Part shown: piece after piece, positions 4,844 through 14,047 of the stretch | Layout of the letters: each line of letters opens with the position of its first letter | Position numbering within the stretch: position 1 is the stretch's first letter | From: an uncultured virus (IMG/VR IMGVR_UViG_3300025132_000002) | Lineage: Duplodnaviria > Heunggongvirae > Uroviricota > Caudoviricetes | Length of the DNA stretch: 20,000 bases | Reading direction: 5' to 3' (one strand) | IMG/VR virus record: IMGVR_UViG_3300025132_000002 | Position numbers and translations under genes: made by a program | The notes under the pieces: model-generated | Seen by the model: the letters and a program-made list of their open reading frames with translations, nothing else | The model's database searches: none | Told to the model about the DNA's origin: nothing

Positions 4844-5107
4844 ATGTCCAAGCCGATTAAACCCATCGAAGTCGCATCCGGTCTTATCAAGTCCGCTTTT
4901 ACCACTGGCGCTGCTGCCGATACCAACATTCCTATTACCGGCATTAAGAAGGGCGATCACCTGATCATAGTTCTTGAATCTGCTGTCACGTCTGCCCTTC
5001 TGACTGACCGCACCGCTCAGACAACGATTACAGCAGATGGGGTTATTCAGATTAGCGTCACTACCGCTAGCGACAAGATCCTTGTCTTCTGGCAGCCGCT
5101 TCGATGA
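4844..5107 (+). CDS. Small beta-rich protein (87 aa), possible head fibre/decoration protein
   Basis: Strong RBS TAGGAG; T/I/A-rich (ITGIKKGDHLIIV...ITADGVIQI). Function inferred. Confidence 0.55.
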   Translation: MSKPIKPIEVASGLIKSAFTTGAAADTNIPITGIKKGDHLIIVLESAVTSALLTDRTAQTTITADGVIQISVTTASDKILVFWQPLR

Positions 5108-5604
5108 ATATAGCTGAAATCCTCAATGAGTGGCCAGAAGCGTCTAAGTTACTGGCCGTCGTTGGCACCCCATATTGTTGGGGTGCGGGCGATCTAGTCA
5201 ATGTTAAAGACATTAAGCCTTCTGTGTCCTCTACCTTTCCAAAGGGTAGTAAGGGTGGAAAAGGGCTAGATTGCTCAGGATTAGCTCAGTGGGCGTTGTG
5301 GATAATGGGCATTGTGAAGGCTGACGCCTGGAATGACCTGTCTGCCGATGCTTTGGCTTACGCCTGTGATGGCGTTAGTGACGCTGACGCTGCTGTTCCC
5401 GGCGATCTGTACTTTTACAAAAACGCCGGAGCGTCTAAGATTCATCATGTAACAGTCGCATTAGGTGGGGGTTTATGCCTTCATGCTAGTGGCGGCAGTA
5501 GTACGAATGGTGATGACCCTACCCGTTCTGTTCAAGTAGTCCATTACCGCAGAGCAGGCACGTTCTTAACTTGCGGTAGGCTGAAGGATAAGTTTCGCCA
5601 ATGA
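5104..5604 (+). CDS. NlpC/P60 family cysteine peptidase (probable endolysin)
   Basis: Motifs GTPYCWG, GLDCSGL (catalytic Cys), PGDLYFY, HVTVALG (His) and LHAS (third triad residue); no signal peptide; ATGA overlaps at both ends. Confidence 0.92.
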   Translation: MNIAEILNEWPEASKLLAVVGTPYCWGAGDLVNVKDIKPSVSSTFPKGSKGGKGLDCSGLAQWALWIMGIVKADAWNDLSADALAYACDGVSDADAAVPGDLYFYKNAGASKIHHVTVALGGGLCLHASGGSSTNGDDPTRSVQVVHYRRAGTFLTCGRLKDKFRQ

Positions 5605-9412: not shown

Positions 9413-9781
9413 TCACCGGGGGAAACCTGCCCCACGCTTTAATATTTTGTGACTGGTTATTTTTGCGCTGAAAGAGTTGGTTAGTTCTTTGATTGCTTTG
9501 TTGTGATCAAATGGCTTACAGCTAAATATGTCTACAAAGCAGTAACCTTTTTCTTGAAAGGTGTGAATAGAGCAATGACTTTCAGCTAACACTACTACTC
9601 CTGTAACCCCGCAATCTTCAGGTACCTTGCCTGAATACCTAAACACATTCGGCTCAGATATTCGGGTCATGCCAATATTTTCGGGAAGCTCCATGAGTAT
9701 ACTATGTATTAAGTCTATATCACCAAGCGCTTCGTTGTCGCACATACTTAAATCTAGTATTAGATGAGGCCCAAAAAACAT
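9413..9781 (-). CDS. speD: S-adenosylmethionine decarboxylase proenzyme family (pyruvoyl-dependent, short SpeD/SpeH type), 122 aa
   Basis: GPHLILD, GVTGVVVLAESHCSIHTF (E-S autocleavage site), VDIFSCK, C-terminal RG; probable start ATG 9781, 1 nt after the upstream stop. Confidence 0.93.
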   Translation of the reverse strand: MFFGPHLILDLSMCDNEALGDIDLIHSILMELPENIGMTRISEPNVFRYSGKVPEDCGVTGVVVLAESHCSIHTFQEKGYCFVDIFSCKPFDHNKAIKELTNSFSAKITSHKILKRGAGFPR

Positions 9782-9782
9782 A

Positions 9783-10319
9783 CTATTCCCAGTAAAGCTT
9801 GTATACAGTAAGAGTGCGGGGACGACCACGAGCAGTCATGTATGTCTCTTGCTCTTGTTCAGCCCTGATAATGGTTAGCGTCTTGTCGAAGTCAGGGCCG
9901 ATGACCTTAGCTACCCGGCCAGTCTCCAGGGCGGCGGACACAATTTGACCTGTGACTTTGCCCACCCGAATAGCGCCCGCAGAATGGTCTGTGAGGTTGA
10001 TGCCGCTGGCGTGGGGTAGATCCCTGCGCGGGTCGTCAGGATCCATTGTACGGTCCAAAATGGCCCCTTCAGCCGGCACCACGAACTCGGTGAAGCGGTA
10101 GGCGTCATACCCCTCTGGGCGACCCGTCACCCAATCCACATACATACTAAAGTTACGGCCACATTCAGACTGGGTAAAAGCATCTGAAGCCTTGATAAGA
10201 TCACATTGTCCGGCCCAGCTTTCTTTCAAGTGCTGGAAATAAGGGTCTTGGCAGTCTGCGTACTTCTGCCCCATTGGGTAAGAGCTAAGATAAAGTCTAT
10301 TAGGTGTGCTGGGTTCCAT
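9783..10319 (-). CDS. Hypothetical protein (178 aa); faint resemblance to nucleoside deoxyribosyltransferase-like fold
   Basis: ATG 10319 has GGAG RBS (alternative start 10331); RLYLSSYPMG and GKVTGQIVSAALETGRVAKVI loosely echo NDT/DUF4406-type motifs. Confidence 0.6.
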   Translation of the reverse strand: MEPSTPNRLYLSSYPMGQKYADCQDPYFQHLKESWAGQCDLIKASDAFTQSECGRNFSMYVDWVTGRPEGYDAYRFTEFVVPAEGAILDRTMDPDDPRRDLPHASGINLTDHSAGAIRVGKVTGQIVSAALETGRVAKVIGPDFDKTLTIIRAEQEQETYMTARGRPRTLTVYKLYWE

Positions 10320-10352
10320 TGTTTTCTCCATGAGATTAGGGCCTCTGCACCC

Positions 10353-10401: not shown

Positions 10402-13386
10402 TCAAGTAACGTCTTTCAAGGTGCGCCCAGTTGAAGCTTCGCCCGATATTGGGAACTCCCACCCCGGTATGTTCAAGGTGAAAGCGTCTTCAAATATTTC
10501 TTCCATCTCTCGTATTTCTTTTGGTAAGTCTGAGCGTTTGTAGTATTTAACTTTCTCTGGTTTATACACATCTTGGGGTTTCCAGTATTTGTGCATACCA
10601 GCAGGTAACGCCCACTCCACTGCAATAGAATCATGGCACTGGTATATGATACCTGTTCCTGGCCCTGTCTGGTCTCGGGGAAAGCGCTTTTCAATACGGC
10701 CTTCTATCATAGCCATAACTTCCGGCTCAGTAGCCAAAACTCCAAAGTTAACTGCCTTGTTAACGTCGTCGCCCATGTTACCAGACTTTCTTTCGAACAG
10801 ATAAGACTGTACGTAGCCATTGTCTCTATAGAAGTCTTGCTCTTTTTGCCAAGCCATTTCCCATTCGGGCTGACCCCTAAGCCAAGCTTCGTGCAGCTTC
10901 ACAACTTCTAGCGGCTTCATGTGCATGTAGGGCATAGACTTCTGTATGATCTCAAATATGTTAAGGTCTATTGTACCTTCGGCTAACCCCTTGTGCCAAT
11001 CAGTCGGAAGGTCAAACTCCGTAGCTGTCAGCACGCGCCAAACGGTTGCGGGAGACGCACCGTATACGGAAGCATAGATAAATATCTTAATGGTATTCCG
11101 CATAGCATCAGCGGTACTGCCGGGGTCAGGCTTTTTCTCCAACCCATTATACCCCGTAGCCCCAGTAAACCTTTTACCGAATGTAGTATACGCATTGTAG
11201 TTATGCGGGTCATACCCTTTTCGGATCGCCTCGCACAGCGCGGGTATCTTCCACACATTCGCTATAATAAACAGGTGGGCCTGATTCACATCTGCCCCAT
11301 AGAATATTCTACCGGGAGGCGCTGCGAATACCTTTTTCAGCGGGCCTTGACCTTTCTTGTTGCCGATGTTCTGTACGTTGGGGCCTCTAGAAGAGTATCT
11401 TCCGACGTTAGTTAAATGCGCGGAGAAAGACGAATGTACTCTGTTGTCTGGGTATAAGAACGATTTAGTGAAGCCTTTGCTTCTACCGTTCTTACCGATT
11501 ATAGGTTTTTCGGGGGCCAAGGGTCTAAGCGTGGTGCCTACAATCTTACCCCTAATACGGCGGAAAACCCTAACAAGCTGCATAATCTCAGCTTGTTTCT
11601 GGTTCAATACACCAGAAGCAATGTAGTGCCTGTGTACAACATCGGATGTAGACAAGTCACCATTGGTAGTCAGAAAGTCTTTCTTGCTATATATGGGTTG
11701 GCCGTCATCGTCTTTAATGCCGGACTCCCAAAGTGGAGGTAAATCCCACTTATCGAAGTAAAGCCATCTTAGGTGACGGGTAGAGTTAGGGTTCATCTCG
11801 TCACCAGATATTTCTTCCTGGCTTAGATGAATGCCCTCCAGCATAAGTAACTGTTGTAGCCTGTTCCAGATGTAGGTATACTCCTTTACCCCGGCAGACT
11901 CTAAAGCGCCCCGCTTATGCTGGTCAATCCACAAACCTACCTTGGTCATCCTAACGCCACGATCTTGCCGCTCGTGGTCAATATCACAAAGAGATGGTAC
12001 CCCAGGATGAGGCCACCAGTCTAAGCCTAGATACTCTTTTCTAATCGGTAGAAAGTATCCGGTGGCCGCTGCCAATCTACGCAGCTCGGGCCAAATCTTC
12101 AGGTTAACTTGTGTATCGGTTCCGTTGTACTTTAACAGCTCGTCATCATTAGTCGACCCGGTTGCAATAGACTCTTCTTTATCGTCACTATCCCATTCCC
12201 CTACATCACAGTAGGTTCTACCAGTAGGTTTAAGGCCCTTTGGAATAGAAGGGTTAGCAGCACGAGCAGGTAAGATTGTGTCAATAAGAGGTGTAGGCGT
12301 TATACCAAAGTTGGCTTCTGCGTTTAGTCTATCGAACTGCCCCGCGTTATGCCCTATCTTTAGGATGTTGGGGTCTGTCAATAACTTTCTGCACAAATCT
12401 GCTATTTGCTTTTCTTCTTGCTCGGAATAAAAACGGGTAACACCATCAGTCGAAAGTAATGATACGCAAGCAAGCTCGATAGGACCATTCTCAATACCGT
12501 TTTCCCACCTAGCAAAAGCAATCGTACGTGTAGGTATCTGCGAGGGCCTGAGCCCTTGTCTATGCTTTGGGGTTTCGACATCGTAACACACAATGGGTTT
12601 TGTGTACTGGTGAGAGTTTCTATCAGAATGAAACGTAGGTCTTATGTCTTCAATCCATTGATCGAACTCCGCAGGTGTTGGCCGCCATAGTATGGATGAG
12701 GGTTCTTCCCAGTTTAGGCTATCTCCAAAAAAGCGCAACCCTTTTCTAAGATCGTGCATCCATCTATCAAAATAAGCCGGAGCCCTGTCTACATAGCCGG
12801 GGCTATACGTAGGCAGAACTTTCCGATGGGCGCCTGGGTAGTCTTCGCTAACCTTCTCCCAGTTTACGTCAATCTTCCAAGGACTGCCGCGAACCTTTTT
12901 TATGCCGCGCCGAATACCCGTTAATGCACGGGTTGATATCTTACCCAGCGTAATAATATTATCGTAATCAGCCGCAGCTTTTAATAACCTAGGGCGGCAG
13001 CATGTTTCAGGGTGCGGAAGAGAATCAAATCCCTCTGCGTTTCGCCTTTTGTTAAGGCGCTTTAGCTTATCTTCCATACGACGATAGGCCCCGTTAATAG
13101 GGCCTGGAGGACGACACGCCAAAACAGAAGTAACTGAGAAGCTATCTCTGCGTTCTTTTAGTTCCCACAACGCTCTAAGCCAAGGGCCGCCCACATCAGA
13201 CGAAGAGAAGTAATGCCCAGTACGGGCATCTTCTTTTGCAGGTGCGTCCAACACAACAATAGCATTAGCATTTTTGTGGTGTTCTGTTTTTAGGGGGCGC
13301 CAATCAAAGGCGAAAGCCCTTAGATCACCAGAAGGCCCGAGGGGGCATTTATCACAGTCGGCTCCATCACACCTTGGATCGTACAT
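10402..13386 (-). CDS. polA: Family A DNA polymerase with N-terminal family-4 UDG-like (Fe-S) domain and 3'-5' exonuclease
   Basis: UDG-like CDKCPL, LDAPAKED, ACRPP, ITLG, RG, PTYSP; Exo I YDVET, Exo II HNAGQFD, Exo III YNGTD; GRYSSRGPNVQNI; motif A ADVNQAHL; motif B RNTIKIFIYASVYG; motif C CHDS. Confidence 0.93.
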   Translation of the reverse strand: MYDPRCDGADCDKCPLGPSGDLRAFAFDWRPLKTEHHKNANAIVVLDAPAKEDARTGHYFSSSDVGGPWLRALWELKERRDSFSVTSVLACRPPGPINGAYRRMEDKLKRLNKRRNAEGFDSLPHPETCCRPRLLKAAADYDNIITLGKISTRALTGIRRGIKKVRGSPWKIDVNWEKVSEDYPGAHRKVLPTYSPGYVDRAPAYFDRWMHDLRKGLRFFGDSLNWEEPSSILWRPTPAEFDQWIEDIRPTFHSDRNSHQYTKPIVCYDVETPKHRQGLRPSQIPTRTIAFARWENGIENGPIELACVSLLSTDGVTRFYSEQEEKQIADLCRKLLTDPNILKIGHNAGQFDRLNAEANFGITPTPLIDTILPARAANPSIPKGLKPTGRTYCDVGEWDSDDKEESIATGSTNDDELLKYNGTDTQVNLKIWPELRRLAAATGYFLPIRKEYLGLDWWPHPGVPSLCDIDHERQDRGVRMTKVGLWIDQHKRGALESAGVKEYTYIWNRLQQLLMLEGIHLSQEEISGDEMNPNSTRHLRWLYFDKWDLPPLWESGIKDDDGQPIYSKKDFLTTNGDLSTSDVVHRHYIASGVLNQKQAEIMQLVRVFRRIRGKIVGTTLRPLAPEKPIIGKNGRSKGFTKSFLYPDNRVHSSFSAHLTNVGRYSSRGPNVQNIGNKKGQGPLKKVFAAPPGRIFYGADVNQAHLFIIANVWKIPALCEAIRKGYDPHNYNAYTTFGKRFTGATGYNGLEKKPDPGSTADAMRNTIKIFIYASVYGASPATVWRVLTATEFDLPTDWHKGLAEGTIDLNIFEIIQKSMPYMHMKPLEVVKLHEAWLRGQPEWEMAWQKEQDFYRDNGYVQSYLFERKSGNMGDDVNKAVNFGVLATEPEVMAMIEGRIEKRFPRDQTGPGTGIIYQCHDSIAVEWALPAGMHKYWKPQDVYKPEKVKYYKRSDLPKEIREMEEIFEDAFTLNIPGWEFPISGEASTGRTLKDVT

Positions 13387-13652
13387 TCAGCCCACCCACA
13401 ATCTGTATCATGTGCATTAAGTAAGTCTTCAGCTTCTATAAAACCGTTTACATATGCTTCCAACATAAAAGCTTGACGATTTCTGAAAGCCTTGAAATAC
13501 GCTTTATCATAGATGTGCGGAGTCGTCAACTCAACTATTCCGCCGATGGCGGCCCAAAACAGTTCTTCTGTTATTTTTACCCTCATAGTTCCGTACGTAA
13601 CTGTATTGGTGTTTACGCATGGTTCGGGGTAATCGTCAAATATTAAATCCAT
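13320..13652 (-). CDS. Hypothetical protein (110 aa)
   Basis: Fills the gap between 13661 and the polymerase; last 67 nt overlap the polymerase start. Confidence 0.55.
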   Translation of the reverse strand: MDLIFDDYPEPCVNTNTVTYGTMRVKITEELFWAAIGGIVELTTPHIYDKAYFKAFRNRQAFMLEAYVNGFIEAEDLLNAHDTDCGWAECTIQGVMEPTVINAPSGLLVI

Positions 13653-13660
13653 AGTGCCGC

Positions 13661-14047
13661 CTAAAAGGGTAACAGGTTGTTTCTTTTGACTGCTAAGTTA
13701 TACAAGCCGATAGCCCGACCAACAGTAGGGTGTTTGTTTAGTATTATATTATCTGCCGAGCCAACCATTATTGTATGCGTTTTGGTGTCTAAATCAAAAG
13801 AAGCTTTAATCTCGGGCCACCCTAAAGCTTCTTGCAGCATACCAACTAAAAAGTAATCAGACAAATCTGGTACTAACTGGGAGTTACTTTGAATAGAAGT
13901 TACAAATGCTGTATGACTCACCATAACTCGTTTCTGGTGTCCGTATTCAAGGTCAATAAATAGCAACCCTGTTCGACACACAAAGCCCGGCAATGACTTT
14001 ATCTTTCGGGCCACGGCTACTTCGTACTGATTTAACATAACAGCCAT
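13661..14047 (-). CDS. Hypothetical protein (128 aa)
   Basis: ATG with TAGGA RBS; in operon orientation; no recognisable motif. Confidence 0.6.
   Translation of the reverse strand: MAVMLNQYEVAVARKIKSLPGFVCRTGLLFIDLEYGHQKRVMVSHTAFVTSIQSNSQLVPDLSDYFLVGMLQEALGWPEIKASFDLDTKTHTIMVGSADNIILNKHPTVGRAIGLYNLAVKRNNLLPF

Follow-up and report, generated by a model that had tools for sequence, protein, structure and literature searches.

Fold and cysteines outlast catalytic residues in a phage family A DNA polymerase's uracil-DNA glycosylase domain, a probable pseudo-enzyme

We analysed a 20,000-nucleotide stretch of DNA (the window) from an uncultured virus of the Caudoviricetes (IMG/VR record IMGVR_UViG_3300025132_000002). 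It encodes a 994-residue fusion, P0001, joining uracil-DNA glycosylase (UDG), 3'-5' exonuclease and family A DNA polymerase (PolA) domains. The UDG domain has the fold and the four cysteines of family 4 enzymes together with changes at five catalytic positions; judged from mutants of a Thermus homologue, its uracil excision has very probably been lost. The domain is nonetheless under purifying selection, and we consider it probable that it persists as a scaffold, a pseudo-enzyme by which the template strand is guided. For N4-like phages, PolA fusions with an inactive UDG domain are already published. Our literature search found no paper on the P0001 family, nor any on catalysis being lost repeatedly while the cysteines stay, and the supplements of the two polymerase papers cited below might include such sequences.

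Results

P0001 is the product of an open reading frame (ORF) at 13386-10402 on the minus strand (coding 13386-10405; Table 1). The Pfam UDG profile PF03167 matches residues 39-213 (E 7.7e-9; 36.2 bits against a cut-off of 24.3), and exonuclease and PolA domains follow, both with their catalytic residues intact. An AlphaFold2 model built from 102 sequences has a mean predicted local distance difference test (pLDDT) score of 93.4 and a predicted template modelling score of 0.92; an earlier model from 5 sequences (pLDDT 54) was left out. Residues 1-223 of the model match the family 4 structure 1l9g with Z 19.1 (root-mean-square deviation 2.4 over 175 residues) and UdgX (6ail) with Z 18.3; the match to 2d3y, which we take to represent family 5, is weaker (Z 15.1) than that to family 4. 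When the full-length protein was compared with the PDB by Foldseek, the listed matches were all to polymerases. NCBIfam matches of the UDG domain are to family-4 models only, and close relatives bear family-4 motifs; the APA and TS of P0001 itself are presumably comparable to motifs of family 5, and its SP to those of family 6.

An earlier note on this DNA, made from the sequence alone, had listed retained cysteine motifs and altered pocket motifs, and translation confirmed all of them: CDKC (C11, C14), CRPP (C91) and CCRP (C130) on the one hand, and LDAPA (residues 46-50), TS (86-87) and the SP of PTYSP on the other, the last with an AGC codon for S195 that reads GCT on the plus strand at 12802-12804. 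Alignment with Thermus UDGa places D47 at E41, S87 at N80 and S195 at H155 and adds two changes beyond those listed, D53 at E47 and P96 at N89, five residues past the third cysteine; in Thermus numbering the set is E41D, E47D, N80S, N89P and H155S. The base-stacking F54 is retained as F60, as are R166, R201 and two acids, and the position of the family 2 catalytic Asn and the family 1 Asp is occupied by A48. The four cysteines are predicted to bind an Fe-S cluster. Identical motifs occur in nine sequences of the P0001 cluster and in the DNA of two related loci (L037, L038), which rules out sequencing error and strain-specific decay. The comparison that the earlier note had proposed, with family 4 UDG, UdgX and phage polymerase fusions, returned a family-4 fold with a changed pocket, and the UdgX signature was absent.

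Table 1. Features of the polymerase fusion, in window coordinates
Feature	Position	Strand	Basis
UDG/3'-5' exonuclease/family A DNA polymerase fusion, 994 residues (P0001)	10402..13386	-	translation, Pfam, AlphaFold2 model
Family-4-type UDG domain, residues 1-222, catalytically degenerate	12721..13386	-	PF03167; TIGR00758 E 7.6e-8 (below its cut-off); 1l9g Z 19.1
CDKC, predicted Fe-S ligands C11 and C14	13345..13356	-	C in 135/135 representatives with N-terminus covered
Motif A LDAPAKED, D47 for E41 and D53 for E47	13228..13251	-	Thermus UDGa alignment
F60, equivalent of base-stacking F54, kept	13207..13209	-	Thermus UDGa alignment
S87 for uracil-reading N80	13126..13128	-	Thermus UDGa alignment
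C91, third predicted Fe-S ligand	13114..13116	-	C in 145/145 aligned representatives
P96 at the position of water-positioning N89 (H109 in UdgX)	13099..13101	-	N at this offset in 55/78 representatives keeping four residues
Basic helical insertion, residues 100-117, 8 K/R and 2 D/E, family-wide	13036..13089	-	helix in AlphaFold2 model; charge count
C130, fourth predicted Fe-S ligand	12997..12999	-	C in 145/145 representatives
Motif B SPGYVDR, with S195 replacing catalytic H155 and R201 retained	12784..12804	-	alignment
3'-5' exonuclease domain, acidic residues D269, E271, D352, D424 present	12064..12603	-	Pfam; alignment
Polymerase domain, D699, R763, K767, D919 kept; His704 at steric-gate position	10405..11991	-	Pfam; alignment

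Three of the five changes have exact counterparts among published mutants of Thermus UDGa. Over five uracil substrates, cleavage is reported to fall to 0, 4, 0, 9 and 0% of wild type in E41D, to 0, 1, 0, 4 and 0% in E47D, and to 0, 1, 0, 0 and 7% in H155S (PMC5387724). In the same source, N80A lowers k2/Km about 40-fold, from 2.4e5 to 5.5e3, and H155S leaves Km approximately unchanged but takes k2 from 0.23 down to 7.2e-5 per s. Because all five positions are changed together in P0001 and each of these three substitutions leaves 0-9% activity in the homologue, excision by the P0001 domain has very probably been abolished.

To place the domain in its family, a profile of five sequences was used to collect 38,072 proteins at E <=0.001. 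The best 150 representatives of 50% clusters were taken, a choice biased towards near relatives; after removal of three that had no domain match and of two whose spans were very long, 145 remained. Where the N-terminus is covered, every representative (135 of 135) has all four cysteines. E41, E47, N80 and H155 are all kept in 78 of the 142 representatives in which every site is filled; three of the four are kept in 26, two in 22, one in 7 and none in 9, and only 40 of the 142 have F54 and N89 as well. In the 16 most degenerate representatives the structural positions C11, C14, P49, R80, C91, P126, C130, G148, G167, R218 and W226 are 94-100% conserved, R166 stands at 50% and R201 at 38%. No clear trend links GC content at third codon positions to the state of the pocket (0.45-0.65 in members with a dead pocket).

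The losses are scattered over the tree, which was built with FastTree from 566 columns of the exonuclease and polymerase and rooted at its midpoint (187 tips; several deep nodes are weak). H155 is missing from 26 maximal clades (25 parsimony changes), where it is replaced by N (11 clades), S (9), A (4), D (3), E (2), L (2) or Q (1). All four scored residues are gone in nine clades, two of them branches of the window's own clade (P0036, P0037, P0034, P0004 and the P0001 group; support 1.00), in which E47D is the only common scored change, the N80 site being S, T or N and the H155 site S, N, D or A. Had one new specificity been selected, one fixed set of residues would be expected; the replacements vary, and the pattern looks like released constraint. 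A change from His to Ser was considered as a specific signal and rejected, 21 of the 31 replacements being N, S or D. That bias is consistent with a helix N-cap before helix 196-201 combined with the one-base step from His to Asn.

The UDG domain is under purifying selection. When the window, L037 and L038 are compared pairwise, the ratio of non-synonymous to synonymous substitution rates (dN/dS, Nei-Gojobori) for residues 1-222 is 0.10, 0.11 and 0.056, and that for the polymerase domain is 0.02-0.04; synonymous divergence of 1.1-1.7 is near saturation, so these ratios are rough. Two pairs with intact pockets, L022-L035 and L022-L032, gave similar values for the UDG domain (0.085 and 0.072). 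Contigs from other samples differ from the window in this domain by 24 synonymous and 4 non-synonymous changes, none at pocket codons (40 of 46 differences listed; contig depth <5).

Several known systems resemble P0001 in part. The UDG-PolA proteins of N4-like phages (cluster 17 of Czernecki et al. 2023, PMC10201439) also have their catalytic residues replaced or deleted; they are described as carrying a family-4 domain that is inactive, in phages for which no DNA modification is known. That domain is reported to lack a helix and a hairpin (PMC10201439), whereas P0001 has a complete fold, four cysteines and an extra helix. Klebsiella phage P184, the only N4-like example compared, was unmatched by the family UDG profile and has no matching cysteine set, and identity between P0001 and N4-like polymerases is about 25% over residues 416-740, a third of the protein. 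The SP15-like enzymes of phiLo and YerA41 (Missoury et al. 2026, PMC13697223; PDB 9qhs, 9qlh) share the domain order of P0001, and their structures match its UDG domain with Z 12-13. They are reported to excise deoxyuridine (dU; E53 and H178 in phiLo), to carry large inserts of their own and to come from phages with hypermodified T (PMC13697223), and their catalytic motifs UDG-A and UDG-B are conserved, whereas the equivalents of E and H in P0001 are D and S. Free-standing family 4 enzymes (Thermus UDGa 1ui0, Thermotoga 1l9g) share the fold, the four cysteines and F54; P0001 differs from them by its D, D, S, P and S at E41, E47, N80, N89 and H155, by LDAPA in place of GE(A/G)PG, by an interval from the third to the fourth cysteine that is about 20 residues longer, and by the fusion to PolA.

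Degenerate domains were also found on three polymerases of named phages. Twort (L121 2701-5904) has the PTYS of P0001 in motif B, but its first 260 residues are free of cysteine. PMBT14 (L124 2486-4990) is altered in motif A and at N80 but still has four cysteines and the His. In SP10 (L122 1207-3891, BAK53003.1) the cysteine set is missing, and E41, N80 and H155 align with D, A and G; SP-10 is grouped with polymerases conserving the catalytic residues in the published account (PMC13697223), contrary to our alignment, and the alignment or the annotated start may be off. None of the three domains aligns with the basic helix of P0001.

That helix contains the basic segment YRRMEDKLKRLNKRRN (residues 101-116), which the earlier note had placed roughly where UdgX has its Arg-rich loop. 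A basic insertion does follow CRPP, and UdgX (Mycobacterium smegmatis, 6ail), besides sharing the fold, has one in the same general segment; the placement did not hold. The R-loop of UdgX is reported to end at H109, which fills the role of N89 (PMC10359453). The P0001 insertion begins beyond the equivalent position (P96), is helical, lacks KRRIH and occurs family-wide, and a UdgX-like R-loop is thereby ruled out. The N of the N89 offset, found in 55 of 78 intact members, likewise precedes the insertion, and the pattern [KR]RRxH was absent from the 110 representatives tested (78 intact and 32 lacking the His). P0001 also lacks the GEQPG, H109 and H178 by which UdgX is defined (PMC10359453), having LDAPA and SPG, and TIGR03914, used for the UdgX comparison, left the UDG domain unmatched at E 0.1. 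From the third to the fourth cysteine (C91-C130 in P0001) the span is 27-64 residues in all 145 representatives; in Thermus UDGa we take it to be about 17 (C84 to C100). A tie between the insertion and loss of catalysis was rejected, the median net charge being +3 in both the 111 representatives that keep the His and the 31 that lack it. The insertion is a family trait, present in intact and dead members alike, and no companion of inactivation.

The polA gene sits in a phage replication module that runs helicase, PD-(D/E)XK nuclease-like gene, AAA_24 gene, an unannotated gene of 234 codons, polA, SMC-like gene and SpeD-like gene, accompanied by a divergent DUF927 gene. This order is largely common to 36 IMG/VR loci, 35 of which are 35-40% identical in the best segment. 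The longest contig with the P0001 protein has 81,127 bases, and the metagenomes that best match the polA gene are marine or aquatic. The searches yielded neither a cultured phage nor a prophage of the family, and no cultured phage spans 80% of P0001. In GTDB the best 80 of 205 matches are confined to residues 456-924, in the polymerase part, and indicated no host or prophage; a viral_contigs search yielded no close relative of the UDG domain, P0004, the helicase or the SpeD gene.

Several further genes of the window or its relatives deserve record. Three polA-flanking genes of the window (9783-10331, 13320-13652 and 13661-14047, all minus strand) are common only to L037, L038 or L039 among the loci and have no Pfam, PHROG or NCBIfam match; an ESM Atlas search with the 182-residue product of the gene after polA gave no usable match. 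The SpeD-like gene two genes after polA is a homologue of class 1b S-adenosylmethionine decarboxylase (9413-9829, minus strand; L037 4491-4949), and L038 has a deoxyhypusine/homospermidine synthase homologue at 1103-2062 (PF01916, E 1e-40). An NlpC/P60 peptidase gene at 5104-5604 (plus strand), followed by small genes, probably belongs to a lysis module that ends the structural arm. Near the replication modules of relatives lie MT-A70 and C5-cytosine methyltransferase genes (L007 18051-18620, L012 18801-20081). L035, a relative in which E41, E47, N80 and H155 are kept, carries at 17850-20234 genes for QueC and a radical-SAM (QueE-like) protein together with a gene of 433 codons that has no match; we suspect the last to be a DpdA-like transglycosylase, and the set suggests 7-deazaguanine DNA modification.

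The polymerases themselves also vary. His704 (11275-11277, minus strand) takes the position of the PolA steric-gate glutamate, and His is found there in 52 of 142 representatives and in 34 of the 38 loci scored. Many members (P0034, P0038 and others) are 1,200-2,000 residues long, and their matches fall into two to four separate stretches, a pattern suggestive of frequent inteins or of other insertions. In L015 the polymerase gene lies in two frames (1144-2121 and the next ORF; 326 and 576 residues), broken after the UDG domain inside the exonuclease region by a frameshift, an assembly error or a true split.

Discussion

The proposal that we consider probable is that the UDG domain is a structural guide for the template. 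An active family-4 UDG fused to a replicative PolA would have been the ancestor of this N-terminal pseudo-enzyme; the domain would have given up uracil excision and been retained as a module that is folded, stabilised by Fe-S and packed against the exonuclease and polymerase. Its basic surface would hold and steer the single-stranded template ahead of the polymerase site, with the basic helix as a possible DNA contact, and its role may lie in processivity or strand displacement. The position on the template is taken from homologues: in phiLo a positive patch of the UDG domain is reported to hold template nucleotides ahead of the polymerase site even without uracil (PMC13697223). The authors of that study suggest strand displacement where the catalytic residues of UDG-PolA are lost, and Czernecki et al. 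2023 proposed a processivity role for the inactive family-4 domain of N4-like polymerases (PMC10201439).

The following points weigh against this proposal. Inactivity of the P0001 domain is judged from mutants of a homologue, and that homologue is a free-standing enzyme of a thermophile. The UDG domain of YerA41 is reported to excise dU with the motifs VLIGY and MYSL, that is, without the histidine (PMC13697223); as the catalytic sets of UDG families also differ, loss of motifs is no proof of inactivity. Since H155S keeps its Km, binding of uracil-containing DNA could persist. Y59, F60, S87 and S195 are invariant in all nine sequences compared from the window's 90% cluster, and the dN/dS ratios of the window's clade carry the roughness noted above. 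Finally, the analysis covers the 20-kb window, and about 61 kb of the 81-kb contig lie outside it.

Binding without cutting, in which the domain would serve as a read-ahead sensor, still recognising a uracil or an abasic site in the template and making the polymerase pause, is an unlikely alternative, if the best of those weighed. It would account for the retained F60, R166, R201 and two acids, for the Km kept by H155S in Thermus UDGa (PMC5387724), and for the phiLo UDG domain lying ahead of the fork on the template (PMC13697223). Yet N80, the reader of uracil N3 and O4, is Ser in P0001; E41Q of Thermus UDGa has no detectable binding; and R166 and R201 are poorly kept in the most degenerate representatives, as the figures of 50% and 38% above indicate.

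A re-tuned pocket, in which the shortened E47D gate and the serines admit a base modified at its 5-position or in another way, such as hydroxymethyluracil (hmU) or polyamine-modified thymine, or a ribonucleotide, to be sensed or excised, seems somewhat less likely still. E47 excludes thymine, and D stands there in all nine representatives without any of the four scored residues; where E is absent from this site, however, D is the usual replacement (23 of 27), also in 12 representatives that keep the His. His704 as a steric gate points the same way, strong degeneration being found in 11 of 52 representatives with a His gate against 5 of 84 with a Glu gate, but most members with a His gate belong to a single large clade, and all four residues are kept in 22 of the 52. 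The window's clade has the SpeD-like gene (window, L037) and the deoxyhypusine-synthase-like gene (L038), and five other genomes of the family have no SpeD match. SpeD homologues are, on the other hand, reported to be common in marine phages as polyamine enzymes (PMC9992855). SP10, a phage with an hmU pathway, and PMBT14, with pyrimidine-pathway genes near polA, also have degenerate UDG domains. Against this, the scan of 20 window ORFs turned up no recognisable base-modification gene, and replacement residues vary both between and within the clades that have lost the pocket. The Twort polymerase, from a phage whose DNA we take to be unmodified, bears the same PTYS. A search for the hmU-kinase family found no match even in control genomes and is uninformative.

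A narrower form of that idea we rate equally improbable: that the dead-looking pocket of the window's clade is a replication-coupled reader of a non-uracil template feature, pausing or redirecting the polymerase through the Fe-S domain and basic helix. The feature may be polyamine-modified thymine, or ribonucleotides admitted by the His steric gate.

The earlier note had left the choice between a non-catalytic DNA-binding module and a sensor for a base other than uracil, and its interpretation is partly supported. The module is favoured, by analogy, by the near-abolition of Thermus UDGa activity through three of the exact substitutions, by purifying selection, and by the solved UDG-PolA structures, in which the domain lies on the template. 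The sensor fared badly: losses recur family-wide with differing replacements, the window's clade having only E47D in common, and a new base sensor is unsupported. The degenerate domains of N4-like phages, in which DNA modification is not known, and of Twort, with its identical PTYS, also come close to what the note had said would count against it, the same substitutions being routine in phages known to have unmodified DNA.

A selected switch-off, in which phage DNA contains uracil or hmU and the fused glycosylase had to be silenced, is very improbable. The degenerate domains of SP10 (a deoxyuridine monophosphate hydroxymethylase gene near polA) and PMBT14 (deoxycytidine monophosphate (dCMP) deaminase and thymidylate synthase beside polA) would fit it, and marine phages with dU-DNA are reported to exist (PMC8323127). 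But such DNA is said there to resist common library preparation (PMC8323127), yet the polA gene is recovered repeatedly: the 90% cluster of P0001 has 21 members from several archives, and the gene is present at shares of 0.2-0.3 in four further studies (runs with shares <0.2 were left out). Five relatives, 88-100% complete, have no match to ThyA, ThyX, dUTPase or dCMP deaminase; all keep H155, and they therefore speak for the family background and not for the window's clade.

Slow residual excision of uracil, aided by tethering to the template, is just as improbable: the fold, F60 and two shortened acids remain and YerA41 is active without the His (PMC13697223), but five catalytic positions are changed at once, three of them near zero singly in Thermus UDGa (PMC5387724), and the family 2 Asn/family 1 Asp position is A48.

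Conclusions

In these phage family A polymerases, conservation of the UDG fold and of the Fe-S cysteines is far stricter than that of the chemistry, which argues that the lasting job of the fusion is structural and uracil excision optional. The family also supplies natural pairs of live and dead domains whose polymerases are otherwise alike, such as P0001 and either L035 or P0072. Such pairs offer a direct route to the role in processivity or strand displacement that both published papers have so far only proposed.

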